Positions 18,686 to 57,416 of a DNA stretch of 64,000 nucleotides are shown in pieces. The stretch spans positions 71,408-135,407 of IMG/VR virus record IMGVR_UViG_3300025732_000020; one strand, given 5' to 3'. The position numbers were made by a program, and so were the translations under genes. This DNA comes from a virus. How positions within the stretch are numbered: the stretch's first letter is position 1; every line of letters starts with the position of its first letter. The notes under the pieces were generated by a model. That model saw only the letters and a list, made by a program, of their open reading frames with translations. It had not been told where the DNA came from and did not search any database.

Positions 18686-18829
18686 TTTCTTATTTAGTAA
18701 CTAATTATATTAGTCTTTAAACTCTGAAACTATTACTCAGGTAAAAAGTTGAGGTTACTTTTTAACTTTAACTTTTAACTTTTACAAACTAACCTGATAT
18801 AATATTTTAGTAAGTAAGCTGGAAGAAGT

Positions 18830-19393
18830 ATGTATCCTCACACAATCGTAGTCCTCGGGGCTGATCGAGTTGGAAAATCTAGTATCGTTAAAAATACTCA
18901 AGATGAGTTGATCTCCCGCGATGTATGTGTCCGTTCACTTCACTTCTCTGGACCTCAACCTCATCATCATACTCCCATCCAGCAATACCTCGATCCTTTT
19001 CAATCTGCCATTGAGGAAAAAGCTCAAGTAGTTATCTGCGATCGTGGATTCTCAGAGGTATGTTTTTATGAGAAGTTCCGCCGTCACATCGAGATCTCAG
19101 AAGAATGGGCTAATTCCGCCGAGTCTTTCTTCTCTGCTTACAGTCAGACGATTAAAGTTTTTCTTATTGAGCGGAACTGGGAATGGAGTCTTCCTCATCA
19201 CATTATCGAAGTTAATGACCTCTATCCAAATTGTTCCGATTATTTCCTAGAGATGCAACTCAAAGTTAGGAAAAAAGAGCATGAGGAGTATTACTCCTAT
19301 ATGAAGGACTATCTCTCTAACCGCTCGCTTCTTTCAGACGTTCAGATTATCTCTCCCACTTCCAAAAGTTTCTCTTTGGCTAATGTGGTTTAA
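18830..19393 (+). CDS. Deoxynucleoside monophosphate kinase (thymidylate-kinase-like P-loop)
   Basis: IVVLGADRVGKSS P-loop at the N-terminus; VICDRGFSEVCFYE carries the DR motif of TMK-like kinases; TGATATAAT at 18795-18803 upstream. Confidence 0.7.
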   Translation: MYPHTIVVLGADRVGKSSIVKNTQDELISRDVCVRSLHFSGPQPHHHTPIQQYLDPFQSAIEEKAQVVICDRGFSEVCFYEKFRRHIEISEEWANSAESFFSAYSQTIKVFLIERNWEWSLPHHIIEVNDLYPNCSDYFLEMQLKVRKKEHEEYYSYMKDYLSNRSLLSDVQIISPTSKSFSLANVV

Positions 19394-45364: not shown

Positions 45365-45892
45365 ATGGATAATGAGTTAAGAGTACCAGATGGCTGGGGA
45401 GTGGCAGAATATGCCGAGCCTGGTAAAGACACCGGTAAAACAAATAAAAATGTTGAGTTAGTCTCGCCTGGTCCACAGTCTGGCGAAGATGATTACCATT
45501 CCCAATATGTCGATCCAGAAGGGAAATTCGGTGCTGCTAAAACAGAAAGAGGATCTTCTGACCATTGCTCCTATGGCGGAGAAGAGGCTAATCAACAAGA
45601 ACCTGAAGGTTCCCAACCTTATGACGTAGGTCAACTCCATCTAGAAGATAAAGAGGTAGTTGTTGAGGATGGTAGACAGAGAGGTTACCACTACTACCTC
45701 GTGACCCATCCCGACGAGGAGTACTTCTATTCCGTGATTCCCAAACTCCGTGGCAACAAGGAGACCTATAAGAGTCCTCGTAAATCAACCCGTAAAGAGG
45801 CCCTAGAAGCTGCCTATAAGGTTCTTAATGTAACTCTTCCCGCTTCTATTTCAGATCAGATGCATTACGTGTATCCCGAGTCAGAAATCTGA
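45365..45892 (+). CDS. Hypothetical acidic protein
   Basis: 175 aa ORF; GTTTAAAG 22 nt upstream of the ATG. Confidence 0.6.
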   Translation: MDNELRVPDGWGVAEYAEPGKDTGKTNKNVELVSPGPQSGEDDYHSQYVDPEGKFGAAKTERGSSDHCSYGGEEANQQEPEGSQPYDVGQLHLEDKEVVVEDGRQRGYHYYLVTHPDEEYFYSVIPKLRGNKETYKSPRKSTRKEALEAAYKVLNVTLPASISDQMHYVYPESEI

Positions 45893-45933
45893 TATAATAA
45901 AATTCTTTTTCAATCTCACTCAAACCGCCAATC

Positions 45934-46929
45934 ATGTCCAGTATCCTAGAGCACAATAAAATGATCTTCAAGAAGGACTCTGGGTTTGATTTCCCAGAAT
46001 TCTATGACTACTATGAGCGGACCGTGGCTAGTGTCTGGAGGCATCAAGAAGTTGCCATGGAATCAGACCTTCGTGACTGGCAATTTAACTCCACGCCTGA
46101 TGAGCGGGCTGTGATCGCTGGGATTCTTAAAGGGTTCGTTAGTGCTGAGCTAGGTATTGGGTGTTATTGGGCTGATGAGGTATGCCGCATCTTCCCTAAA
46201 CCTGAGATCCAGGCAATGGCTAAAGCATTCTCTTTCTTTGAGACAATCCATGCTGCCGCCTACTCCTACCTCAATGATGTCCTCGGCCTCAAGGAGTATG
46301 AGGAGTTCATCAACGATCCTGTCGCCTGCTCAAAGATCGATACATTTTTTTCCAAGTATCCAGACAAGGTGTCCCTTGCTGTTTTCTCTGGAGCAGGAGA
46401 AGGCGTAAGTCTATTTAGTTCATTTGCTGTGCTCCTCAGCTTCAATAAAGATGGCCGGTACAAAGGTCTTGCCCAGATCATCTCATGGAGCGCTATCGAT
46501 GAGCAGACTCACTCTGAGGCAGGTTGCCAACTCTTCAAGAGACTCGTGGAGGAAACCGGACTTTCCGACGCTGACCGTCAGGCGATCTATGAAGGTTTCC
46601 AACTCGTAGTTGACAAAGAATCGTCCTTTATTGACCATATTTTTAATTCAGCAAATATCTCCTCAATCGATGCTGAGGAGTTGAAAGCTTATATTAAGAA
46701 CAGAGCAAACGAACGCCTACTTCTCCTCGGCCTTGACCAGATGTTCAAACTAACCACCGAAGAACTTACAAAGGCAAAATCAATTTCCTCTTGGTTTGAT
46801 CCGATGGTCAAAGGGGCAAGTAGTACGGACTTCTTTGCTGCTTCTAAAGATGGTGCTAACTACGTTGCCAAAGTCTCTCAAGATTTTATGGCTGTAGATC
46901 TTTCCGCCTTGGACCTCGTTCTTGCCTAA
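45934..46929 (+). CDS. nrdB: Ribonucleotide reductase class I beta subunit
   Basis: ETIHAAAY (radical Tyr), GAGEGVSLFSSFAVL, IDEQTH di-metal ligands, DFFA near the C-terminus. Confidence 0.95.
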   Translation: MSSILEHNKMIFKKDSGFDFPEFYDYYERTVASVWRHQEVAMESDLRDWQFNSTPDERAVIAGILKGFVSAELGIGCYWADEVCRIFPKPEIQAMAKAFSFFETIHAAAYSYLNDVLGLKEYEEFINDPVACSKIDTFFSKYPDKVSLAVFSGAGEGVSLFSSFAVLLSFNKDGRYKGLAQIISWSAIDEQTHSEAGCQLFKRLVEETGLSDADRQAIYEGFQLVVDKESSFIDHIFNSANISSIDAEELKAYIKNRANERLLLLGLDQMFKLTTEELTKAKSISSWFDPMVKGASSTDFFAASKDGANYVAKVSQDFMAVDLSALDLVLA

Positions 46930-47272: not shown

Positions 47273-48012
47273 TGTACCATTTTGTGTATCTTTCTTTTGA
47301 AGATTCAAAAGGTGGAAGAAATTATATAGGTAAAAGAAGTTGCTTAAACCCCTATGACAATTATTTAGGGTCTTTTTCAGACACGTCTTTTAATCCAACA
47401 AATAAAATTATCCTATCCTATTATAAGACCGCTGAAGAAGCAATAAAAGGAGAGATTCAATGGCAAAGAGTTTTTAGAGTAAAAGATGATTCAAATTTTG
47501 CTAATCAGGTATATCAGACCGATGTAAAATTTGATTGTACTGGCAGAAAACATAGCGAAAAAACTAAATTAAAAATGTCTATCTCTCAAAGAGAATGCCA
47601 AAATAGGCATGATGTTAAAATTAAAAAAAGTGAAAATATAAGAAAAGCGTTAAAGAATGAAGAGATAAAATTAAATCACTCATCTCAGATGAAGAGAATA
47701 GGAAAACAAAAGGAGTCTCAACTTAAAAAGTCTATCTCTTTAAAGAAATTGAATGGTGCAGTCCATTCACGTAATGAATGGAAAGTAAGACAAAGTATTT
47801 CTCAGGTGAAAAGTCAAAATGATCCTGTTACAAAAGAATTAAAATCTAGAAGAATAAAAGAGGCAATGCAAAGTGAGCAAGTAAAAGATAAACTAAGAAG
47901 TAGAAAAAATCCTCAAAAGGGAAAGATATGGGTAAATGACGGATGCAATTCTTTAATGGTTTTTCCAAATGAGGTACCTGAAGGATATAAGAGAGGGAGG
48001 TCTAAAAAATGA
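47272..48012 (+). CDS. GIY-YIG (Seg-like) homing endonuclease
   Basis: HFVY...NYIGKR...YLGS at the N-terminus; NUMOD3-like GRKHSEKTKLKMS; AT-rich; ATG at 47272. Confidence 0.8.
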   Translation: MYHFVYLSFEDSKGGRNYIGKRSCLNPYDNYLGSFSDTSFNPTNKIILSYYKTAEEAIKGEIQWQRVFRVKDDSNFANQVYQTDVKFDCTGRKHSEKTKLKMSISQRECQNRHDVKIKKSENIRKALKNEEIKLNHSSQMKRIGKQKESQLKKSISLKKLNGAVHSRNEWKVRQSISQVKSQNDPVTKELKSRRIKEAMQSEQVKDKLRSRKNPQKGKIWVNDGCNSLMVFPNEVPEGYKRGRSKK

Positions 48013-48431
48013 GAGATGGCATGAATAATTTTCGTACCCCTGATGGGTGGAGGGTTAGAGGAAGGGAACAAGGAGGAAGAGATTTTTCTGACTCAAAAGA
48101 AGTCTGGAAGCAATGGCGTAGTTCCCCTTACGAGGTAAGTAATACTGGAAAGGTAAGAAGAAAGGGAAGTAACGAGGTCCGTAAACCAAGAGACGATGAC
48201 CGCAAACACCAGAGAGTGAATCTCACCTGGGATGGAAATAGAGAAGAACCACCTTTACACCAGATGGTTATGGAACTTTTTGGTCCTCCTAAGCCCAAGG
48301 GTGAACATATAGTCATCTTACATAAAGATAATGATGGGACTAATAATGCCATCTCAAATCTCAAATGGGGAACTAGGTCGGAGAACGTCCAACAAGCCCA
48401 CGATGATGGACTGATTAAAAAGTCAAAATAA
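48009..48431 (+). CDS. NUMOD4-HNH homing endonuclease
   Basis: EVWKQW...YEVSNTGKVR (NUMOD4), LHQMVMELF, LHKDNDGTNNAISNLKWGTRSEN (HNH). Confidence 0.88.
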   Translation: MRDGMNNFRTPDGWRVRGREQGGRDFSDSKEVWKQWRSSPYEVSNTGKVRRKGSNEVRKPRDDDRKHQRVNLTWDGNREEPPLHQMVMELFGPPKPKGEHIVILHKDNDGTNNAISNLKWGTRSENVQQAHDDGLIKKSK

Positions 48432-48532: not shown

Positions 48533-50449
48533 ATGCCTGAACTTCAAGTACCGGAATGGATGAGCAAGGAAGCCGTGGATACCCTTTCACGTGGATATCT
48601 CTATCAAGGTGAGACTCCTCGTGGGATGTATGAGAGGGTCTCCCATCAAGCTGCCAAACTTCTCAACTATCCTGAGATCTCCCAAGATATTTTTGAGATG
48701 CTTTGGAAGGGATTCTTGGGTCTAGCCACCCCAGTAGCAAGCAATTTCGGTACTTCACGAGGGCTGCCCATCAGTTGCTACTCAAACCACCTCTCTGATT
48801 CTGTCCCATCCATTTACTCCCATCTCAAAGAATCCGCAGCACTCTCTCAACATGGAGGTGGAGTAGGAACTTACTTTGGGGACATTCGTCCCGCTGGAGC
48901 GCCTATTTCCTCTGGAGGTAAGAGTACTGGCATTGTGCCTTGGATGAGACAGTATGACCAATGTGCCTCTGTTGTCTCTCAAGGCGGTGTGAGACGTGGC
49001 AGTTTTGCACTCTACCTCCCCATTGACCACCCCGACCTGCCTGAAGTACTGCGTTCTAAAGACCACTCGCAAGGTGACCCACGCGATTTTATTGATAGTA
49101 ACATCGCTGTAACCATCTCTGATGAGTGGGTGGAGAGTATGATCCGTGGGGATAGGGATAAGCAAAAGATTTTTGGCGAGGTACTTAAAGCTAGAATGAT
49201 TAGCGGGTCCCCTTACATGATCTTTATTGATAATGCCAATCGTGCCAATCCAGAGTGCTATACGCAACGTGGACTTAGTGTAAAACTTAGCAATCTCTGC
49301 TCTGAGATCTTCCTTCATACCGATGAGAACCATACCTTCGTCTGTGTACTTTCCTCACTGAATCTCTCGCGTTGGGAGGAGTGGAAAGATTGGACAGGTC
49401 CAGCAACTGGCAAAACTGCCCCTGAACTGGCTGTATACCTCCTCGATGCTGTCGTTGAAGAATTCTGCCACAAGGCCGAACGTCTCACGTCTCTTGGAAG
49501 AGCCGTACGCTTCGCCCGTAAATCCCGTGCTCTGGGCCTTGGGACCATGGGTCTTCATGCTCTTTATCAGTCTAAAGATCTACCCTTTGCATCTGAAACC
49601 GCTCGTTCTTTGAACATCGAAGTCCACGAGTTCATCAAAGAAAAAGCAACTAAAGCCTCTAAAGATATGGCTGCCACTTATGGCGAGCCTGAATGGTGCC
49701 AAGGTACTGGCCTCCGTCATACCCACCTCATGGCTATTGCTCCAACCAAATCTAACTCTGTGATCTGTGGGGCTGGAAGTGAAGGTATCGAACCCATCGA
49801 TGCCAACTATTATGTTGCTAAGCAAGCTAAGGGCACTTTTGTTCGTAAAAACAAGTACCTCGTTGAGTATCTTGAATCGATTGGCCGTAATACCGAGGAG
49901 ACCTGGGAGTCAATTCTAGAATTCCGTGGATCGGTGCAACATCTAGACTTCCTTGATGATTATCACAAGGATGTATTTAAGACTGCACGGGAGATTGACC
50001 AGTTTGAATTGATTAAACAAGCATCCGATCGCCAAAAATTTGTCTGCCAAGGGCAATCAATTAATCTCTTTGTTGATCCCGAAGCCTCTCCTGATTATCT
50101 TTTCAGACTCCACCTCAGTGCATGGAAAGGAGGACTCAAGTCCCTTTACTATCTCAAGAGTAGTTCTCTTCTTGTAAAGCGTAAAAAGCTTGAGACTTCA
50201 TCTAAAACCGCGAAGATCATCACCAAGGAAACCTGTCCATACTGCGTCATGGCAAAATCCCTTCTCAGGTCGAAAGATTACAAGATTGAAGAGATTGACC
50301 GATCTGAAGTTCCAGACTCAGAGTTTCCTTACCGCACTGTTCCTCAGATCTGGATTAATGGACACCACATCGGAGGATATAATGAACTGGCAGAAAAGAT
50401 CGGTACTCCCGAAAAACAATATGGTGAATGTGCTGCCTGCGAGGGTTGA
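48533..50449 (+). CDS. nrdA: Ribonucleotide reductase class I alpha subunit, without ATP cone, with an internal glutaredoxin domain before the C-terminal CxxC tail
   Basis: PISCY, SNLCSE, FVCVLSSLN, LKSLYY; Grx motifs TCPYC, TVPQIW, IGGYNEL; C-terminal ECAACEG. Confidence 0.95.
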   Translation: MPELQVPEWMSKEAVDTLSRGYLYQGETPRGMYERVSHQAAKLLNYPEISQDIFEMLWKGFLGLATPVASNFGTSRGLPISCYSNHLSDSVPSIYSHLKESAALSQHGGGVGTYFGDIRPAGAPISSGGKSTGIVPWMRQYDQCASVVSQGGVRRGSFALYLPIDHPDLPEVLRSKDHSQGDPRDFIDSNIAVTISDEWVESMIRGDRDKQKIFGEVLKARMISGSPYMIFIDNANRANPECYTQRGLSVKLSNLCSEIFLHTDENHTFVCVLSSLNLSRWEEWKDWTGPATGKTAPELAVYLLDAVVEEFCHKAERLTSLGRAVRFARKSRALGLGTMGLHALYQSKDLPFASETARSLNIEVHEFIKEKATKASKDMAATYGEPEWCQGTGLRHTHLMAIAPTKSNSVICGAGSEGIEPIDANYYVAKQAKGTFVRKNKYLVEYLESIGRNTEETWESILEFRGSVQHLDFLDDYHKDVFKTAREIDQFELIKQASDRQKFVCQGQSINLFVDPEASPDYLFRLHLSAWKGGLKSLYYLKSSSLLVKRKKLETSSKTAKIITKETCPYCVMAKSLLRSKDYKIEEIDRSEVPDSEFPYRTVPQIWINGHHIGGYNELAEKIGTPEKQYGECAACEG

Positions 50450-50505
50450 TCTCACGCCCAATCCGTGATAGAATCTACAAGTAAACATTGTTCCTAATCA
50501 GTTCC

Positions 50506-50961
50506 ATGAATTTCGACTATTCTCAGTTCATCAATGAAGGCTATGCTTCTCAGCAAAAATACGCAAAAGCTGCTGGTCAACCCGGCCCACTTGATGAAAA
50601 TCTCTCTCGGGAAGATCGCCACGCGAAAGTAATCGAGTACATGGGACATCTTATCGAAGAAACAATCGAGGCTCGGGTATATGTCCCTCGCCGAAGCTGG
50701 AAGAATAACGAGCCTTCTTTCCTCGACTCCGACAAGAACCGTGAGGAGTTTATCGCTGAGATGTTTGATATCCTTCTCTTCCACCGAGCAGCACTTGCAT
50801 ATGCTGGCGTAAGTGGCGAAGAATTTGCAGAAATTGCCGCTAAGAAAATGAATTACAACTCCAAGCGAAAAGACCACAACGTTAATGGTACTGAGGAGGC
50901 TTCGCAGAATCCCACCGAAGAACTGCAGGGTAATTGCAAATCCGCTGATTTCAATGGCTAA
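50506..50961 (+). CDS. All-alpha NTP pyrophosphohydrolase, T4 gp56-like dCTPase/dUTPase
   Basis: LIEETIEA...RRSWK...EEFIAEMFDILLF...GVSGEEF...KKMNYNSKR parallels gp56 / dimeric dUTPase motifs; TGATAGAAT at 50466-50474. Confidence 0.65.
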   Translation: MNFDYSQFINEGYASQQKYAKAAGQPGPLDENLSREDRHAKVIEYMGHLIEETIEARVYVPRRSWKNNEPSFLDSDKNREEFIAEMFDILLFHRAALAYAGVSGEEFAEIAAKKMNYNSKRKDHNVNGTEEASQNPTEELQGNCKSADFNG

Positions 50962-51118
50962 AGATTACAGGGCATTTGGCGAAACCAAGTGCCATTTCTG
51001 TGACGGGAGAGGATTTATAATCCTCCAACAATCAACTCTGGAGGGTAAAATCCTCCCTAACCACGTAGAAGAATGTGAGCGATGCAATGGACAAGGATTT
51101 TTTAAGCAAGATAGCTAA
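50954..51118 (+). CDS. Small DnaJ-type zinc-finger protein
   Basis: Two CxxCxGxG motifs (CHFCDGRG, CERCNGQG); ATG at 50954. Confidence 0.65.
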   Translation: MAKDYRAFGETKCHFCDGRGFIILQQSTLEGKILPNHVEECERCNGQGFFKQDS

Positions 51119-51572
51119 AGGACAGATCCTTGTCCTTAACGCAACTTACGAACCAATAAACATAACCTCATGGAAGAGGGCATTTGTTCTCCTTTTAAAG
51201 GAAAAAGCACAACTTGTTAATCACAGAGTAATCAGACTTCTTGAATATATCAAGATTCCTTTTACAAAATTAAAAAACAACAAACCAACTAGAAGTGCTA
51301 TTTATCAACGAGACGGACACAAATGCCAATACTGTGGATCCACTCGTAAACTGACCATCGATCACATCATTCCTAAGTCTAAAGGTGGTACAGACTCATG
51401 GGATAATTTAGTTGTTGCTTGCTCTTCTTGTAATATTAGGAAAAGTGATAAGTATCTAGAGCATACCGGAATGAAACTTATTCGTAGGCCTGTTCAACCA
51501 CGTACTCACCTAGATATTGCCATAACTCAGACAAATATGGCAGAGTGGAAAGAGTTTTGCTTTATGGCTTAA
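51087..51572 (+). CDS. HNH endonuclease (McrA/HNH_5-like)
   Basis: ILVLNATYEPIN, IYQRDGHKCQYCG, LTIDHIIPKSKGG, WDNLVVACSSCN. Confidence 0.9.
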   Translation: MDKDFLSKIAKGQILVLNATYEPINITSWKRAFVLLLKEKAQLVNHRVIRLLEYIKIPFTKLKNNKPTRSAIYQRDGHKCQYCGSTRKLTIDHIIPKSKGGTDSWDNLVVACSSCNIRKSDKYLEHTGMKLIRRPVQPRTHLDIAITQTNMAEWKEFCFMA

Positions 51573-51586
51573 TAGATTAAAGTTCG

Positions 51587-51616
51587 GAGGGAGGAGGAAT
51601 CTTCCCTCTTTTTTTT
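51587..51616 (+). terminator. Intrinsic terminator
   Basis: GAGGGAGGA-GGAA-TCTTCCCTC followed by T8: 9 bp stem with a GNRA loop. Confidence 0.85.
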
Positions 51617-51625
51617 ATTGTAGTA

Positions 51626-52192
51626 ATGGACTTTTACTTCTCGTTTGGCAAAAAGAGACCTTCGGAAAAATCGACGGTTATCTCCGCTGCATTTATCTGG
51701 GGTATTTTAGAAGTAATTATTGACCCTCTACTTGATTTTATTAATCGTAGAGTATTGAATAAAATAAAAGGAGAGGAATTAAAACGGGTATTTGACGAGT
51801 TGGATATTTTCTGGCTTAGAAATGGTTTGAATAAAGACTACTCTGAGTCTGAAGTAAGACTAATCATCTCTATGTTTTTAAGAGCTATAAAAGACGACCA
51901 TCTGTCCCGTAAGGAACTCTTAACTCTTGTTGACTTTGTTCAGAGAAAGTGGTCGTCCTCTGAGGCATTACAAAAAACATTTACCCAGGTCGATGAAGTT
52001 ATAGAAGCTAGAGTAGAAGCAACTGTAGACCAAGCCATAGAACTCTATGAAAAGAAATATATGGAAAAGCCACAAACCCCAGAGGAATTTGTGGTCAGTA
52101 CTGCCGAGATTATCTTTCATGAGCCAGATGGTAGCACGGCTCAAGAGTTACTCGGTGGGATGATAGAAATTAAGAGTAGAATTATTTACTAA
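51626..52192 (+). CDS. Hypothetical protein with N-terminal hydrophobic segment
   Basis: 188 aa; VISAAFIWGILEVII; helical remainder. Confidence 0.55.
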   Translation: MDFYFSFGKKRPSEKSTVISAAFIWGILEVIIDPLLDFINRRVLNKIKGEELKRVFDELDIFWLRNGLNKDYSESEVRLIISMFLRAIKDDHLSRKELLTLVDFVQRKWSSSEALQKTFTQVDEVIEARVEATVDQAIELYEKKYMEKPQTPEEFVVSTAEIIFHEPDGSTAQELLGGMIEIKSRIIY

Positions 52193-53403
52193 ATAACCCA
52201 GAGGGACTTCATCGGATCTTTAGAGGCAGTATTATTCTGCCTTAAGATTTTGTATGTGCCATCTCCTTGGGTCTCAGGATCGATCCATTCTCTGTTACCA
52301 TCTAGAGCTTCAGCAATCTCTCTAATCCAGTCTGCAGCAGTACATGCCGGAACATTCTGGCAAATCACATTACTATGCTTAGTTGGAATTTGTACCTTTT
52401 TGGCATAATCATCAGGGAAACCCATGAGGGCTAGACCCTCAGAAACGGTTAACCATCTGTCCTCATGGGGATGCATCAGATGAGGAAGAGTTTTCCACAT
52501 AAGCGATTGTGTTCTATACCATGCAAGTTTCATACTTCCGTCCATGATATTCTTTCCGGCTCTTTTTTTCTCCAAGGTGTAGTTGAGCCAGCGACTTGCT
52601 CTCTCATCCTTGACTACTCTAGCGGCTTCTTCTAACCACCCTGAGTCATAGATTACGTTCCATACGGACGTCATTCTCTTAGAGGCAACATGAGCTAGAA
52701 TGTCCTGCTTTGTAGACCCGGTAAACTTAGACTCAATAAACTGCCAGAGGGGGTCTGCACTAGGAAGATTTTTATTATTTGACACCGACTCCGTAGGAGC
52801 GAAATGTCCCTCTCCTAGGAATTTATGGAAAGGCAGGAAGTCTTTTTTAACTGGCGCAAGGACCGGGACCTTGTTACCCTTCCACAAGAAAAAGAAACTT
52901 CTTGTCCGTTCTTGTGGCACGCCATGATTAATCGAGGTGGTCTTTACCAAACTCATTGTATAGCCATTTGCCTGGGCGAGGGAGTTAATTCTTTCTGCAA
53001 ACTCCTCTCCCATCTTGGAGTAGAGAGTTGGGGCGTTCTCGACCATAATTGCCTTAGGAGCAATTTTCTGCATAGCAAACTCAGCAGCATTGTACATATG
53101 CATGTTACTAGGAGCAGAACATCCACGTGGGTTGTTTGCTTTATCCCCAGAGGTGGTGTTGGCCATTGAGAGCCCAGCGCATGGAGGAAGTGACGTTACA
53201 ATATCTACATAGTCAGTAGGATAGTTCTTCTCATCGAAATCGTAAAATGGCACCTTATCCATGTACTTGAGACAGTACTGATCATTCGCACCAAATACAC
53301 TCCCCCAAGATGCAATCCACTTCGGATCTGACTGAAGGGCAATCGAAGTTCCTACAACACTTCCCCCTACGAGAGGGATGATATGACCATGAGTATACGT
53401 CAT
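52189..53403 (-). CDS. Divergent DNA cytosine-C5 methyltransferase
   Basis: Catalytic LPPCAGLS (IV), VENAP (VI), GVPQERTRSF (VIII), RWLTVSEGLALMGFP (IX), CQNVP (X); motif I reads IIPLVGG instead of FxGxGG. Confidence 0.8.
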   Translation of the reverse strand: MTYTHGHIIPLVGGSVVGTSIALQSDPKWIASWGSVFGANDQYCLKYMDKVPFYDFDEKNYPTDYVDIVTSLPPCAGLSMANTTSGDKANNPRGCSAPSNMHMYNAAEFAMQKIAPKAIMVENAPTLYSKMGEEFAERINSLAQANGYTMSLVKTTSINHGVPQERTRSFFFLWKGNKVPVLAPVKKDFLPFHKFLGEGHFAPTESVSNNKNLPSADPLWQFIESKFTGSTKQDILAHVASKRMTSVWNVIYDSGWLEEAARVVKDERASRWLNYTLEKKRAGKNIMDGSMKLAWYRTQSLMWKTLPHLMHPHEDRWLTVSEGLALMGFPDDYAKKVQIPTKHSNVICQNVPACTAADWIREIAEALDGNREWIDPETQGDGTYKILRQNNTASKDPMKSLWVI

Positions 53404-53479
53404 GTGATATAATAATTAAGTCTAGAGTTCCTTAGACTAAAAATCCTCGGTTTAAAGATTATGGAGGATAAATTTAGCA

Positions 53480-53776
53480 ATGGATAAAAAACTCTCGGCT
53501 CAAGACTATATGGAAATCTTGAAAAAGAAACGTCAAGATGGCTCGTATGACTATGCCGATCGTGTCTTTTATAAAGGCAAAGTAATGCTTAAATGCCCCC
53601 CAGGAGCTACTAAGATGGGGAACACATGCGTCCCATCTGCTGCCACTGCAGCTGCCGCTGGACCAGGTAAGAACTGGCAAAAAGATCTCGGAGGCATTAA
53701 CCCTCAACAAGTTCAGCAATTAGGCGTTGCAAAAACGTCTAAGGATGTAAAAAAAGCTAGGGAAAAGAATGGATGA
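53480..53776 (+). CDS. Small basic hypothetical protein
   Basis: 98 aa; KCPPGATKMGNTC; GGAGG and GTTTAAAG upstream. Confidence 0.6.
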   Translation: MDKKLSAQDYMEILKKKRQDGSYDYADRVFYKGKVMLKCPPGATKMGNTCVPSAATAAAAGPGKNWQKDLGGINPQQVQQLGVAKTSKDVKKAREKNG

Positions 53777-55010
53777 GCCAATCATCGTTACTAATGGGCG
53801 ATTCTCGGTGTCTATAGGTATCTCTAAAAAACAAATTCAAAACACAGATTTTTCTGGAATAGAAAAATTAGAACCTGGAGTGCCCGATGGTGCCACTGTT
53901 TGGAAAACACAAAGTGGTAGAACAGTAAAAAGAAATCCAGTCACTAATAGATGGTCTTACGTTGATCTTCCTAAATCAGTAAAGAATGATTCCGATGATC
54001 ATGAAGCTATTGAGAAAGAGATTAATGACTTTCTTTCTAACTCTGTAGAAGAATTGATTAAGGAATTAACAACAGAAAGCACTATCAATAGACCAGATAT
54101 CTCTGGGGAGATTAAATCAGAAAAAAGCCATGGGAAGTATACATTAAGCTTAGATGAAGCTAAGTCTTTTCATGAATACCTAAAAAATCCAAAGTCACAG
54201 GAGAAATATTACGTTAGTGCTGACAGTGTAGATAATGTAATAGATAAGTTAAAACAGTCTCCTAATTTTACAAATAACCTTAAAAGGATAGCCTCTAAAG
54301 GAAGCATATCCACTAGAGGAGTTAACCTTGAAGATAGGGCTCGTAAAGTAATAAGGTTTTACCTATCTACTGGCGGTAGGTGCGCTGTTACAGGCGAAAA
54401 AATGAGTTTTAGTAATCTTCAATTAGATCATAAGATTCCTTTATCACTAAAAGGCTCAGATACAGAGGATAACTGGGCAATGATGAAACCAAAATTCAAT
54501 CAATTTAAGAGAAACTTACTGGGAGATAAGTTATTTAATAAATTAAATAAAGAAATAAATCTTCCAGAGCATTTAAGAAAGATAAGACAATTAAAAAATG
54601 AATCACTAAATAACGTTAGAAGTACCTGGGGTAACTTCCTAAGAGCATCAGACGCGGATACTATAGCAGTATCTTTACAGCCTGAACAGGTAAAGAGTTT
54701 AATAAAGGGTACTAAAGGTACAGAAGTATTGAAAGCTTTGCTAAATAAATTTGAAATTTCTTACTATACGCCATCTAATGATGGGATTAGAAGTAGAGGT
54801 TTAGTACTATCTAAGCAAAAAATGGCTAATCTGCTTTTAGATAGAATTAAAAATATTAAAGAAAATAATAAGAATATAGACATATCTATTTCATCTGCTT
54901 TTGAATTTCCAGATACCTCAAAGGATAATGATTATGATAAAAAGATCAAGGAAATTAGGGCAGAACAAAAATTAAAAACCAGTAATCAAAAACAAAACAA
55001 ACTACAATGA
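53769..55010 (+). CDS. HNH-domain nuclease with a long N-terminal region
   Basis: GRCAVTG...LQLDHKIPLSLKGSDTEDNW...FNQFK; AT-rich. Confidence 0.7.
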   Translation: MDEPIIVTNGRFSVSIGISKKQIQNTDFSGIEKLEPGVPDGATVWKTQSGRTVKRNPVTNRWSYVDLPKSVKNDSDDHEAIEKEINDFLSNSVEELIKELTTESTINRPDISGEIKSEKSHGKYTLSLDEAKSFHEYLKNPKSQEKYYVSADSVDNVIDKLKQSPNFTNNLKRIASKGSISTRGVNLEDRARKVIRFYLSTGGRCAVTGEKMSFSNLQLDHKIPLSLKGSDTEDNWAMMKPKFNQFKRNLLGDKLFNKLNKEINLPEHLRKIRQLKNESLNNVRSTWGNFLRASDADTIAVSLQPEQVKSLIKGTKGTEVLKALLNKFEISYYTPSNDGIRSRGLVLSKQKMANLLLDRIKNIKENNKNIDISISSAFEFPDTSKDNDYDKKIKEIRAEQKLKTSNQKQNKLQ

Positions 55011-55249
55011 TTGAAAGAATCTCAAAACCGATTCGCTTTGATAAGCAAATCCCTTGGCTCGTAGTAGCCCGTGACGGAGAAAAATTCTTTGTCGCTAAAG
55101 AAGATGTAATTGCCGAGGACCCAAGTATGGAACTCATTGAGATGGGAAGTCGTTCCCTTCTCCAGTGGGCAATGGAGTATGACTACCCACTCCGTAAATT
55201 TGTAAAACTCCAAAAAATATTAGTCAAGAAATATTTCGATATCCAATGA
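55007..55249 (+). CDS. Small hypothetical protein
   Basis: 80 aa; ATGA overlap with the upstream gene. Confidence 0.55.
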   Translation: MIERISKPIRFDKQIPWLVVARDGEKFFVAKEDVIAEDPSMELIEMGSRSLLQWAMEYDYPLRKFVKLQKILVKKYFDIQ

Positions 55250-55264
55250 GCAGGGGGTTTCTCA

Positions 55265-55273
55265 TGATAGAAT
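55265..55273 (+). promoter_or_regulatory. Putative early/middle extended -10 promoter TGATAGAAT (representative copy; about 9 copies listed in findings)
   Basis: TGn-TA(T/G/A)AAT upstream of the kinase, thioredoxin, 44348, nrdB, nrdA, dCTPase-like, TS-like and primase genes. Confidence 0.7.
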
Positions 55274-55302
55274 GATGATCAAATCATTCATCACGGGAGA
55301 CC

Positions 55303-56139
55303 ATGACTCTGTCATTTGACTATCAGTACATCAAGATTGCAAAAGAAATCCTTTCCGAAGGGACCGAAGTTGTCGGCCGAAATGATCTCCGCTATAAGCA
55401 GATGTTCGGCCAGACAATCAAAGTCGATCTTCGGGAGGGATTTCCTGCATTGACTATTCGCAAGATGCCCATCCGTAATCTCTTCCGAGAATTTATGTGG
55501 GATGTCAATGGAGACTACCAAGTCACCAACCTGGGTCCAGCCAAGCACTTCTGGGACTTCCTTGCGGACACCGAAGGCCGTCTCGCAGGATCTTATGGAC
55601 GCTCATGGCGATCTTGGCCCCAGGTCTGCCCTGAGCAGAATATGCAATGGGAAAACTTCCGTAGTGGACCCTTTGATCAACTTAAGTGGATTTGGGAACA
55701 ACTCCGCACTAACCCAACTAATCGCCAACTTGTTCTTCAAACTTTCAATCCTGCTTACGACTCTCTTCACTGCCCTCCTTGTCATCCTAACGTCACTTTT
55801 TCTAGCGATGGGACTTATCTCGATGTTCTGGTAACTGCTCGGAGTAATGACATGGCCACTGGAGTGCCACTAGACATGTTCCGTTATAGTCTTCTTACCA
55901 TCAAGATGGCTCAAGATGCCGGCCTCACTCCCCGATTTGTGATGTTCGCTTCTGCAAACAACCACATCTACTCCCAAAATGAGATGGCCATTGAGTCTAT
56001 TATCAAGAACGTTCCTATGACACCCTGTGACGTATGGATCAATAACGAAAAAACTCTATTTGAACTCGATCCAGAGACCGACTTCGAACTGATTGACTAC
56101 GAGTCTTATCCGTCAGTTCGTATGGAGGTTGCAAACTGA
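55303..56139 (+). CDS. Thymidylate-synthase-fold enzyme with Asp at the Asn177-equivalent site; candidate dCMP methyl/hydroxymethyltransferase
   Basis: FREFMW, SYGRSW, CPPCH (catalytic Cys at 55780-55782), RSNDMATGVPLD (GAC at 55873-55875), HIY, C-terminal EVAN; the fold is confident, the substrate is inferred. Confidence 0.85.
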   Translation: MTLSFDYQYIKIAKEILSEGTEVVGRNDLRYKQMFGQTIKVDLREGFPALTIRKMPIRNLFREFMWDVNGDYQVTNLGPAKHFWDFLADTEGRLAGSYGRSWRSWPQVCPEQNMQWENFRSGPFDQLKWIWEQLRTNPTNRQLVLQTFNPAYDSLHCPPCHPNVTFSSDGTYLDVLVTARSNDMATGVPLDMFRYSLLTIKMAQDAGLTPRFVMFASANNHIYSQNEMAIESIIKNVPMTPCDVWINNEKTLFELDPETDFELIDYESYPSVRMEVAN

Positions 56140-57416
56140 TGTCTTTGCCCTCCTACGATTACACCACGACTCTCCTTGAAGATGTATTTGAGCCCATCCT
56201 CAATCCTTATTATCCGATTGTCGTTATTGATTTCAAGGTATATGCTCATGCCATTAATAAATATGCTGAGTTGGCTTCAGAAGTCGCTAAAGATGAGGAA
56301 GAGTTAAAAACGATCATGAAAGCGATGTGGGCTTATAAACTCAATCGCGGGCCTGATATGCTCAAATCTTTCCCTTTTGTTGGGGTAGTGGTTGATGATC
56401 TCAAGGGTCAGTTTGAACCCGGGTTTTCTGAGGCATCGACTACAGGCGTGGGATATTGGAGACATATTGAGGCACATAAACTTAACCTCGCTGAGTATAA
56501 AGGGGGAAGGGGCGAAAAAACTCCCTTCTTCTACATTACGGAGGCTGCGGGGTACGAGTACATACTCTCCCAAGGATCCACGTTCCCTTACTTTGCAAAA
56601 GAGTTCTTTGAGGCGGATGACATTGCAGGACATATTTGCAGACTAAAGCGAAAGGCAAAAAAGAATACTGCCTTAGCCCAAAGACAAATCATCCTCTCCA
56701 CTGTGGATGGGGACTGGCAAGGACTAGTCTCCGACCCTCATGATATTGTCTGGGCCAATACCGGCCCATGGCTTCCCCGCCTCCGCTCTGAACGCGAGGT
56801 ATGCGACTACTACCTCCGAAAAGACAAACTTATCATCGACTCCGCATATGGGTGCTATACCGTAAAGGAAAAAGTCGGTGATGCTGGAGATAACCTTCTC
56901 CCTGGAACCCCCCTACGATTTTTTGACTTATACAATGAAGATTCTGAATGGCGTTTTACAAAGGAAGACACCGAAGCAATATCAAAAACACTTAACTCCA
57001 ATACTGCTTCGAACAGGGAAGATCATTTACTTTCCGCGAAGAAGTTCCTCTCCTCTAGGGGTCTTTTTATGCCAGAGATTGGAGAAACTCAGTACGATGA
57101 AAAACAATTTTTCATTACTAAAGCCAAAAAGATCCGCATTGAAAACTCTCATCCAGAGCTCCGTGGGAAAAACAAAACTCTATGCCTTAGTGTCGCGGAT
57201 CAAGAGGAAGTTTTTAAAAAATGTAAGCAACTAGCTCTTCATCAAGAAGAACTGAAGCAACAGATCAAAGAGCATACCGAGCAGGTTGCTAAATGTAAAG
57301 AAGAGGAGGATAAGAAGTGTATCAAAGACCTCCGACTCACAATTAAATCCCTTAAGGACCTCCGAGATTCAGTTGTGAACGATTTTAAACAACTTGTTGG
57401 AGTCCTAGACGACTGA
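56139..57416 (+). CDS. 5'-3' exonuclease (FEN / T4 RNase H-like) with C-terminal coiled coil
   Basis: VVIDFK, EYKGGR, FEADDIAG, STVDGDWQGL, GDAGDNLLPG. Confidence 0.85.
   Translation: MSLPSYDYTTTLLEDVFEPILNPYYPIVVIDFKVYAHAINKYAELASEVAKDEEELKTIMKAMWAYKLNRGPDMLKSFPFVGVVVDDLKGQFEPGFSEASTTGVGYWRHIEAHKLNLAEYKGGRGEKTPFFYITEAAGYEYILSQGSTFPYFAKEFFEADDIAGHICRLKRKAKKNTALAQRQIILSTVDGDWQGLVSDPHDIVWANTGPWLPRLRSEREVCDYYLRKDKLIIDSAYGCYTVKEKVGDAGDNLLPGTPLRFFDLYNEDSEWRFTKEDTEAISKTLNSNTASNREDHLLSAKKFLSSRGLFMPEIGETQYDEKQFFITKAKKIRIENSHPELRGKNKTLCLSVADQEEVFKKCKQLALHQEELKQQIKEHTEQVAKCKEEEDKKCIKDLRLTIKSLKDLRDSVVNDFKQLVGVLDD

Follow-up and report, generated by a model that had tools for sequence, protein, structure and literature searches.

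The window analyzed here is a 64-kb stretch of DNA, the right-hand part of a 135-kb viral contig, and derives from a TIM5-like, Aurunvirus-related phage. The contig is ~69% identical to S-TIM5 and S-TIM61 at the nucleotide level and starts within psbA, which bears out the probable cyanophage origin suggested in a preliminary description of the sequence. The features under study are collected in Table 1. The gene order nrdA, pyrophosphatase, HNH, methylase, ThyA, flap endonuclease and primase is shared with S-TIM5 and S-TIM61 (Aurunvirus; JQ245707 and OP053361), in which the orthologue of the TS-fold gene (80% amino-acid identity) is annotated simply as ThyA or thymidylate synthase. Unlike these phages, the studied phage contains insertions at 51626–52192 and 53769–55010, neither of whose ORFs has a match in S-TIM61, and a different gene between gyrase and psbA. 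The start codon of the flap endonuclease gene overlaps the TS-fold stop codon (ATGA).

Table 1. Genes and promoter elements discussed in the text (positions in the 64-kb window).
Feature	Position	Strand	Basis
Motif copy TGATATAAT ahead of kinase	18795–18803		TGATAKAAT search
P-loop kinase, thymidylate-kinase/dNK fold; candidate dNMP kinase for modified dCMP	18830–19393	+	Walker A, DRG, fold
Motif copy TGATATAAT ahead of nrdB	45890–45898		TGATAKAAT search
Ribonucleotide reductase small subunit (nrdB)	45934–46929	+	PF00268, 165 bits
Ribonucleotide reductase large subunit with C-terminal glutaredoxin (nrdA-grx)	48533–50449	+	PF02867, 340 bits; PF00462, residues 562–613
Sigma-70-type promoter, extended -10, ahead of pyrophosphatase	50446–50474	+	TTGATC, 17 nt spacer, TG-n-TAGAAT
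Probable all-alpha NTP pyrophosphatase (MazG/PRA-PH/dUTPase_2 clan), candidate dCTPase	50506–50961	+	Profile, PHROG, Atlas
HNH homing-type endonuclease	51075–51572	+	PF01844, 63 bits
188-aa ORF, convergent with methyltransferase	51626–52192	+	phrog_3316 (unknown function), sole match
C5 cytosine DNA methyltransferase, conserved in lineage	52189–53403	-	PF00145, 73 bits
413-aa HNH-like ORF	53769–55010	+	Weak HNH and endonuclease VII matches
Extended -10 element TGATAGAAT ahead of TS-fold gene	55265–55273	+	TGATAKAAT search
Predicted TS-fold dCMP C5-modifying enzyme	55303–56139	+	Asp177, Ala165, Cys143, Asn168, Asp169, His147 (E. coli numbering); C-terminal tail retained
Flap endonuclease/5'-3' exonuclease	56139–57416	+	phrog_26716, 317 bits

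The pyrophosphatase was tentatively placed in its clan by a PRA-PH score of 19.5 bits (slightly below the cut-off of 21.3), a match to PHROG 12184 (phrog_12184, "nucleotide pyrophosphohydrolase"; E 1.6e-6) and Atlas features of 0.97 to MazG-like clusters. Its translation contains EExxE and ExxD acidic motifs and is 78% identical to a hypothetical protein of S-TIM61. The earlier label "gp56-like" is valid at the superfamily level only, since pairwise comparison gave no direct similarity to T4 gp56, which itself matches the dUTPase_2/PRA-PH profiles. T4 gp56 hydrolyses dCTP and dCDP to dCMP; here, dCTP is the presumed substrate. In the kinase, the P-loop (Walker A, GADRVGKS), the invariant DRG of the DR(Y/F/G) type and the fold characteristic of thymidylate kinases and dNKs are all present. 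The AF2 model (pLDDT 96) retrieves thymidylate kinases as all of its top Foldseek matches (E about 5e-6, TM 0.5–0.58), and in Pfam the single match is a weak one to AAA_28. The kinase assignment is thus upheld at the level of the TMPK fold, and the enzyme may act on modified dCMP. The ribonucleotide reductase previously noted in the window is of class I, with an nrdA-glutaredoxin fusion.

These genes share promoter elements, as the preliminary description had stated for the TS-fold, pyrophosphatase, kinase and ribonucleotide reductase genes. The extended -10 motif TGATAKAAT occurs in 11 copies against 2.7 expected, a count reached in 0 of 100 shuffles, and copies precede the kinase, nrdB, pyrophosphatase and TS-fold genes and three other ORFs at distances of 25–45 nt; the element ahead of nrdA, TGATAAAAT, is a one-base variant.

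The C5 methyltransferase noted earlier, which lies on the opposite strand, is likewise confirmed. The family is defined by motifs IV (PC), VI (ENV), VIII (QxRxR) and X (GNxVP), which appear here as PPC, ENA, QERTR and QNVP and are conserved across 115 homologues. The N-terminus reads PLVGGS, as compared with FxGxG in the AdoMet loop of motif I; this segment lies outside the Pfam-aligned region and is moderately conserved.

The TS-fold product matches Pfam Thymidylat_synt (PF00303) with 184 bits over residues 8–277. Alignment to E. coli ThyA and to thymidylate synthases in the PDB places Asp at Asn177 and Ala at Gln165, with Cys146 in a PPCH motif and Asp169 kept. Among the 83 recovered members of the TIM5 clade, Asp177 is universal (83/83) and Gln165, the residue that orients Asn177, is never retained (Ala in 78, Gly in 3, Cys and Ser in one each). 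Cys146, Glu58, Tyr94, Arg166, Ser167, His207 and Tyr209 are invariant and Asp169 is preserved, which identifies the clade as part of the TS/pyrimidine hydroxymethylase superfamily; Asp at position 177 together with loss of Gln165 assigns it to the dCMP-specific branch. The Asn-to-Asp exchange at E. coli position 177 has been described as the rule for dCMP specificity (PMC13326640; bioRxiv 10.1101/2024.12.05.627091). The dCMP-type active site proposed earlier therefore holds, and as read from these residues the enzyme is predicted to act on dCMP rather than dUMP.

That the gene encodes an ordinary second thymidylate synthase working on dUMP, as its ThyA label in GenBank and the annotation of S-TIM5 imply, is very improbable. 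In Pfam, NCBIfam and the PDB, thymidylate synthases do score best, at ~30% identity. However, the changes at 177 and 165 are fixed, NCBIfam equivalog scores are far under the cut-off with the exception of one generic model, and the clade is split from Asn177 enzymes in the tree with support of 100/99. The searches for a second thyA and for thyX that had been proposed at the outset revealed a single TS-fold gene in each relative examined and ThyX in 4 of 5 relatives, so that dTMP would have another source.

The nature of the group added to C5 is the more delicate question. T4-type pyrimidine hydroxymethylases carry Asp or Glu three residues ahead of the catalytic Cys (Park et al. 2019, PMC6400193), and in T4 dCH the D145N substitution abolishes 5hm-dCMP formation (PMC6400193). 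The corresponding position 143 is Asp in T4 gp42, SPO1 gp29, M6, ViI and phiW-14; in the TIM5 clade it is Cys (76), Thr (4) or Ile (3), the TS-like Ile occurring in the deepest branches, and an acidic residue is absent from all 83 members. The clade also departs from T4-type hydroxymethylases, which are tail-less, in that its C-terminus is as long as in TS and conserves Val262 and Ala263. T4-type hydroxymethylases further have polar residues beside the catalytic Tyr (T4 Ser94) and at position 168, near C5. In the clade, residue 168 is Asn in 79/83, as in T4 gp42, SPO1 gp29 and M6, and residue 93 is Ser in 57 and Ala in 26. The shared Asn168 and the replacement of E. coli Trp83 and Leu143 by smaller residues speak for hydroxymethylation.

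The lack of an acidic residue 143 and the retained tail point to 5-methyl-dCMP. Asn-to-Asp mutants of genuine thymidylate synthases reportedly methylate dCMP. Xanthomonas phage Xp12 makes 5-methylcytosine with a dCMP methyltransferase, a deaminase and DHFR. By analogy, the TS-fold enzyme would be a dCMP methyltransferase that retains hydride transfer and releases dihydrofolate, 5mC would replace C, the DNA methyltransferase would top up residual C, and the glucosyltransferase of relatives (see below) would act elsewhere than on 5mC. The combination of Asp177, a non-acidic residue 143 (Asn in Xp12) and a retained tail is common to both enzymes, as is an accompanying deaminase, and MazG-type hydrolases adjoin the TS homologue in relatives of Xp12. 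Tail, His147, Asp169 and Arg21 are all kept in the TIM5 clade, tail and His147 being features of reductive methyl-transferring enzymes. In contrast, Xp12 has Pro in place of His147 and DHFR next to its TS homologue, whereas the search for DHFR (PF00186), with Xp12 as positive control, found none in S-TIM61 or in a complete relative (G000), and the TIM5 lineage has ThyX. Nor does the tree, unresolved at this node, join the clade to Xp12. A TET/JBP dioxygenase able to convert 5mC to a hydroxylated base was searched for and not found.

Counter-evidence from relatives lies between the gyrase gene and psbA. A proposed search for glycosyltransferases located a T4-type alpha-glucosyltransferase in this slot in S-TIM5-like relatives, and the same enzyme together with UDP-galactopyranose mutase (GLF) in a second subgroup (G001); GLF adjoins the glucosyltransferase in 5 contigs. 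The S-TIM61 protein matches PF11440 (GT72) with 37 bits and, in the PDB, T4 AGT alone (phmmer E 2.5e-14). For the modelled G001 orthologue, T4 AGT is a full-length match with E 2e-23 and TM 0.80/0.88, the next GT-B structure following at 5e-11. Of 50 homologues retrieved from a set of 1.84 billion representatives, 46 belong to Pfam AGT. By sequence and model comparison, the relatives' enzyme is a true homologue within the T4 DNA alpha-glucosyltransferase family (PF11440, GT72). T4-type alpha-glucosyltransferases need a hydroxyl acceptor on DNA, and the conservation of this homologue therefore points to 5-hydroxymethyl-dC. The studied phage has no AGT in the slot, as would suit an Xp12-like phage: a contig 99.985% identical to the studied one encodes an unrelated 354-aa protein, P0424, between gyrase and psbA (hhalign probability against AGT 0.4%), for which a PDB match at E 0.021 is the sole indication of a glycosyltransferase domain. 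Between the two products that the preliminary description had allowed, the evidence is divided. Replacement by 5mC appears somewhat unlikely, and we favour 5-hydroxymethyl-dCMP, with roughly even odds.

A DNA glycosyltransferase fed by an Asp177 TS-fold enzyme is also found in the 5-hydroxy-dCMP synthase systems of RB69 gp48, DLP3 gp80 and Rhizobium phage RL38JI (Lee et al. 2026, PMC13326640), and the RL38JI cluster includes an NDP-sugar (UDP-galactose) mutase comparable to GLF of the G001 subgroup. Unlike the TIM5 enzymes, these synthases have Glu143 and no tail, and their diagnostic D169N exchange is missing in the TIM5 clade: position 169 is Asp in 88/88 aligned sequences and Asn in RB69 gp48.

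In T4, hydroxymethylcytosine is produced by gp56 dCTPase, gp42 dCMP hydroxymethylase, gp1 dNMP kinase and the cd deaminase, followed by alpha- and beta-glucosyltransferases. The three-step logic earlier drawn from T4 is recovered here at the family or fold level, as a MazG-family pyrophosphatase, a dCMP-type TS-fold enzyme and a TMPK-fold kinase. The superfamilies of the first two appear to be those of T4, and the dCMP deaminase (encoded on the same contig beyond the window), a separate dTMP route, the AGT-family enzyme of relatives and homing endonucleases scattered among the pathway genes are further likenesses. The differences are that the studied phage, a myovirus outside the T4 group, has a polymerase of family A, that its TS-fold protein, without Asp143 and with its tail, is 24% identical to gp42 and no nearer to it than to real thymidylate synthases, that the kinase has no sequence match to the gp1 family, and that the lineage makes dTMP via ThyX, without a detected DHFR, and carries a C5 DNA methyltransferase.

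This methyltransferase would have no obvious job if every C were already substituted, and its conservation implies unmodified C in some DNA relevant to the phage. Modified dCMP might then remain at the level of the nucleotide pool, with partial or absent replacement in DNA; deamination might turn it into a thymidine analogue, or it might perturb host pools, and sequence-specific 5mC would be the main DNA mark. Some phages have deaminases that accept 5-modified C nucleotides as substrates (bioRxiv 10.1101/2024.12.05.627091), and the pyrophosphatase is a candidate dCTPase only. Against this, dTMP already comes from ThyX, and in both T4 and MetaGPA "modified" contigs it is the trio of pyrophosphatase, TS(Asp177) and kinase that goes with full replacement. 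We regard an effect restricted to the pool as improbable.

A TS-fold enzyme rewired for cytosine nucleotides and its helper enzymes make it probable that the DNA of the phage contains chemically modified cytosine, and replacement may extend genome-wide. As the best explanation, with a probability of roughly 0.5, we propose a hydroxymethyl-dC pathway with post-replicative decoration, of which the window would hold the pre-replicative half. Host RNA polymerase would read the genes early from the extended -10 promoters; the MazG-type pyrophosphatase would convert dCTP to dCMP; the TS-fold enzyme would place a one-carbon unit from methylene-tetrahydrofolate on C5 of dCMP, not dUMP; the TMPK-fold kinase would phosphorylate the product; and the phage polymerase would incorporate it, with dTMP supplied separately by dCMP deaminase and ThyX. 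After replication, 5-hydroxymethyl-dC would be decorated by an enzyme from the gyrase-psbA slot. More tentatively, the TIM5-clade enzyme may be a third, independently evolved dCMP hydroxymethylase, lacking an acidic residue 143 and keeping its tail, that feeds a strain-variable tailoring slot (alpha-glucosyltransferase, the same with UDP-galactofuranose supply, or the new enzyme P0424).

Cyanophage S-2L replaces adenine. The literature searched contains no report of cytosine replacement in any cyanophage and no statement on modification of TIM5-like DNA; as far as it reaches, cyanophages would be a new host group for cytosine replacement. The prediction rule based on residue 143 and the tail is broken either way: either hydroxymethylation is carried out by a non-acidic, tail-bearing enzyme, or a T4-type DNA glucosyltransferase persists in a phage lineage with 5mC, and both outcomes would sharpen product prediction for TS homologues. 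If the enzyme is a third hydroxymethylase, cytosines with diverse sugar hypermodifications would occur throughout a widespread cyanophage lineage, and current signature-based predictors would wrongly call them 5mC. New DNA-tailoring enzymes may be encoded in the variable slot between gyrase and psbA. Metagenomes from marine, estuarine, freshwater and aquaculture settings contain TIM5-like phages, and the lineage has been described as persistently rare (PMC10087341); speculatively, sequencing and PCR on hypermodified templates may under-count it. A modified genome would bear on escape from restriction and CRISPR in picocyanobacteria.

The preliminary description had assigned a dCMP-type active site to the TS-fold gene, and alignments with a Brucella thymidylate synthase (TS) structure and with E. 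coli ThyA, whose numbering is used here, bear this out. The protein keeps Cys146 (motif PPCH), Glu58, Trp80, Tyr94, Arg166, Ser167, Asp169, His147, His207 and Tyr209, and has Asp at the position of Asn177 and Ala at that of Gln165. The Asn177Asp exchange selects dCMP (PMC13326640; the rule is also used in bioRxiv 10.1101/2024.12.05.627091), and it is found throughout the clade formed by the relatives of cyanophages S-TIM5 and S-TIM61 (genus Aurunvirus). We aligned 88 full-length homologues from a collection of 5.8 billion proteins: 83 belong to this TIM5 clade, all with Asp177, and the remaining five, which have Asn177, are ordinary TSs of 24-30% identity. The clade is monophyletic in the tree (support 100/99). 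The S-TIM5 and S-TIM61 orthologues are annotated as ThyA in GenBank; that the enzyme is an ordinary TS nevertheless appears very improbable. A search for a second thyA or a thyX, as proposed in the preliminary description, returned exactly one TS-fold gene in each of four records examined; S-TIM61 encodes a ThyX, as do three of four IMG/VR relatives, among them G001, a complete genome of 159 kb with a TS-fold protein that is 89% identical to the one in the window.

The TS-fold stop codon overlaps the start of a flap-endonuclease gene (ATGA, 56136-56142), an arrangement suggesting that the modification enzyme and the replication module are translationally coupled. The order TS(Asp177), flap endonuclease, DUF5906 primase is kept in distant relatives with TS-fold proteins of 41-43% identity. 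One such contig carries a dNK/thymidylate-kinase-type kinase and another a dUTPase_2-type pyrophosphatase, each within 10 kb, so that the three-enzyme set recurs with non-orthologous parts; the dNK-like kinase shows no similarity to that of the window. No DHFR or glycosyltransferase annotation lies within 10 kb on the distant contigs encoding P0086, P0090 and P0091.

Published residue rules also bear on the product. Asp169Asn marks flavin-dependent 5-hydroxy-dCMP synthases (PMC13326640), and since Asp169 is invariant here a 5-hydroxycytosine route was rejected. In hydroxymethylases the residue at position -3 from the catalytic Cys is Asp or Glu and the C-terminal tail of TS is absent, and D145N abolishes 5hm-dCMP formation by T4 dCH (PMC6400193). 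When this rule was checked on T4 gp42, SPO1 gp29, M6, ViI and phiW-14, Asp was present in five of five and the tail in none; the residue is Glu in RB69 gp48, Leu in true TS, and Asn in the enzyme of the 5mC phage Xp12, which keeps the tail. In the TIM5 clade this residue is Cys (76), Thr (4) or Ile (3), and His147 is retained, as is the tail with Val262 and Ala263. By signature, the TS-fold enzyme looks like a reductive methyl-transferring enzyme, and its own residues favour 5-methyl-dCMP. Against this, Asn168 is common to the TIM5 enzyme, T4 gp42, SPO1 and M6, but not to TS or Xp12, residue 168 being within 6 Å of C5 (PMC13326640), and Trp83 and Leu143, described as gating solvent access (PMC6400193), are both replaced by smaller residues. 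Moreover, in the tree one divergent clade unites RB69 gp48 with four of the five reference hydroxymethylases (T4 gp42 is on a very long branch, its placement unsupported), and the Asp that they share may thus be inherited rather than independently required.

The gene context favours a hydroxyl-bearing base, in that the lineage conserves an enzyme of the T4 DNA alpha-glucosyltransferase (AGT) family, with a sugar-nucleotide mutase beside it in one subgroup. In S-TIM61 the gyrase and psbA genes flank a gene that scores above the Pfam AGT threshold, and the sole PDB match of its product is T4 AGT (E 2.5e-14). A model of the G001 orthologue (pLDDT 94) superposes over its full length on T4 AGT (E 2e-23, TM 0.80/0.88), the next-best GT-B enzyme being twelve orders of magnitude worse. 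When 1.84 billion representatives were searched exhaustively, only 102 relatives came up; among 50 full-length ones, 46 are Pfam AGT and one matches a generic GT4 model. A UDP-galactopyranose mutase gene (240 bits) directly follows the AGT-like gene in G001 and four further contigs, though not in S-TIM61, the relative G003 or two other contigs; phage RL38JI similarly combines an NDP-sugar mutase with DNA glycosyltransferases (PMC13326640). The search for DHFR that had been called for found none in the phage contig or in S-TIM61, whose genome is complete, with Xp12, where DHFR is annotated beside the TS homologue and deaminase, as positive control; this, too, favours a hydroxyl-bearing base, as does ThyX, which likewise avoids dihydrofolate production. 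Taken together, we favour glycosylated or free 5-hydroxymethyl-dC, with a probability of about 0.5, and consider 5-methyl-dC the less likely product. A methyltransferase-oxidase-glycosyltransferase route was set aside, because no TET/JBP dioxygenase (PF12851) was detected in five records.

The search for a glycosyltransferase, also suggested in the preliminary description, thus succeeded in S-TIM61, G001 and other relatives. In this phage the place between gyrase and psbA is taken by another protein, P0424 (354 aa), read from an ENA contig that is 99.985% identical to the phage contig over 13.4 kb and reaches 7.4 kb further left. P0424 is not AGT-like (hhalign probability 0.4%), has no match in Pfam, PHROG or a phage database, and was not found in IMG/VR or in four relatives; a single relative (57%) occurs in an ocean-survey read. 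The only lead is a weak match to a GT10 fucosyltransferase donor domain (PDB profile search, E 0.021), and similarity to T4 beta-glucosyltransferase is not significant (BLAST, E 1.2). The gyrase-psbA slot is therefore strain-variable, holding an AGT-like gene, an AGT-like gene with UDP-galactopyranose mutase, or P0424, and the sugar argument extends to this phage only by analogy.

The window spans bases 71408-135407 of a single viral contig, C1, of 135,407 bp (84% complete by CheckV estimate). At the nucleotide level the phage collection contains no relatives of it other than S-TIM5, S-TIM61, S-TIM66 and S-TIM54 (Aurunvirus; ~69% identity), of which S-TIM5, S-TIM61 and S-TIM54 are cultured. 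Compared ORF by ORF, the contig is syntenic with S-TIM61 from psbA (8.07 kb in S-TIM61) to ~149.7 kb; roughly 25 kb are lacking on its right, and the contig is thus without the S-TIM61 arc encoding ThyX, a helicase, a PNKP-type phosphatase, gyrase and the 'DNA alpha-GT'. The stretch occurs, as assembled contigs, in 20 sequencing runs of metagenomes whose labels are freshwater, marine, estuary and aquaculture. Outside the window, ~14 kb of small ORFs with almost no S-TIM61 homologues lie between DNA polymerase and the structural module; the three largest scanned have no Pfam matches.

Positions of the features discussed (plain numbers, window; C1, whole contig; L, loci on other contigs)
Feature	Position	Strand	Evidence or remark
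TS-fold gene	55303-56139	+	Pfam Thymidylat_synt, 184 bits
Probable all-alpha NTP pyrophosphatase (superfamily level)	50506-50961		PRA-PH 19.5 bits, slightly below cut-off
Kinase	18830-19393		Walker A loop, invariant DRG motif
C5 DNA methyltransferase	52189-53403	-	PF00145 73 bits; motifs IV, VI, VIII, X conserved in 115 homologues
Class I RNR large subunit	48533-50449		C-terminal glutaredoxin domain, residues 562-613
dCMP deaminase	C1:44274-44684		73% identical to S-TIM61 enzyme
HNH-type endonucleases	48009-48431, 51075-51572, 53769-55010		last is an insertion absent from S-TIM61
188-aa ORF	51626-52192		phrog_3316, unknown function; no S-TIM61 counterpart
Gyrase-psbA slot, this phage	L066:5719-6783		P0424
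Gyrase-psbA slot, relatives	L056:5906-8346, L002:6576-7856
Kinase and pyrophosphatase, distant contigs	L009:17390-17944, L011:16779-17378
Small-ORF region (L054)	C1:14264-28149
GTTTAAAG(A/T) sites	796, 8210, 17472(-), 18326(-), 18714(-), 19388, 28679(-), 44234, 45335, 53450, 60980		candidate late promoter

All genes named in the preliminary description are present at the coordinates given there, as judged by profile, alignment and structure matches, including the dNMP-kinase candidate, a genuine C5 methyltransferase and a complete RNR (nrdA and nrdB). The best structural matches of the kinase model (pLDDT 96) are thymidylate kinases throughout. The pyrophosphatase, described as gp56-like, is probably so, at the superfamily level only: T4 gp56 matches dUTPase_2 and PRA-PH, in a clan common to both proteins, but BLASTP finds no significant pairwise similarity between them. 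The same ORF matches PHROG 'nucleotide pyrophosphohydrolase' (E 1.6e-6) and MazG-like clusters (Atlas similarity 0.97), with no phmmer match in the PDB. The glutaredoxin domain lies in the RNR large subunit, and the reductant is thus fused to the enzyme. The shared promoter is also confirmed: it is an extended -10 element, TGATAKAAT (11 copies, 2.7 expected), and copies precede, by 25-45 nt, the genes for the kinase, NrdB, the pyrophosphatase and the TS-fold enzyme and three other ORFs, the pyrophosphatase copy having a matching -35 as well. A second motif, GTTTAAAG(A/T), closely precedes many structural ORFs and ORFs of unknown function, on either strand, and is a candidate phage-specific late promoter; RTTTAAAGW has 15 matches in the window (5.7 expected). 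The TIM5 lineage encodes a SigF-like sigma factor. Three HNH-type genes lie among the nucleotide-metabolism genes, where T4 likewise has scattered homing endonucleases, and the 188-aa ORF is convergent with the C5 methyltransferase, overlapping its 3' end by 4 nt.

Neither full-replacement model explains why a C5 DNA methyltransferase is conserved; partial or pool-level roles of the pathway are rather improbable. Our search of the TIM5 literature, which covered work other than the original 2012 S-TIM5 description (Sabehi et al.), found no statement of DNA modification. The TS-fold enzyme falls outside the T4-type definition and is not clearly Xp12-type. T4 follows the same logic, with dCTPase, TS-fold dCMP enzyme, dNMP kinase, deaminase and post-replicative transferase, although the TIM5-lineage parts are non-orthologous or independently derived. 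These results support the hedged interpretation first put forward, and we consider it quite probable that dCMP is the substrate of the TS-fold enzyme and that cytosine is modified in some form in the lineage.
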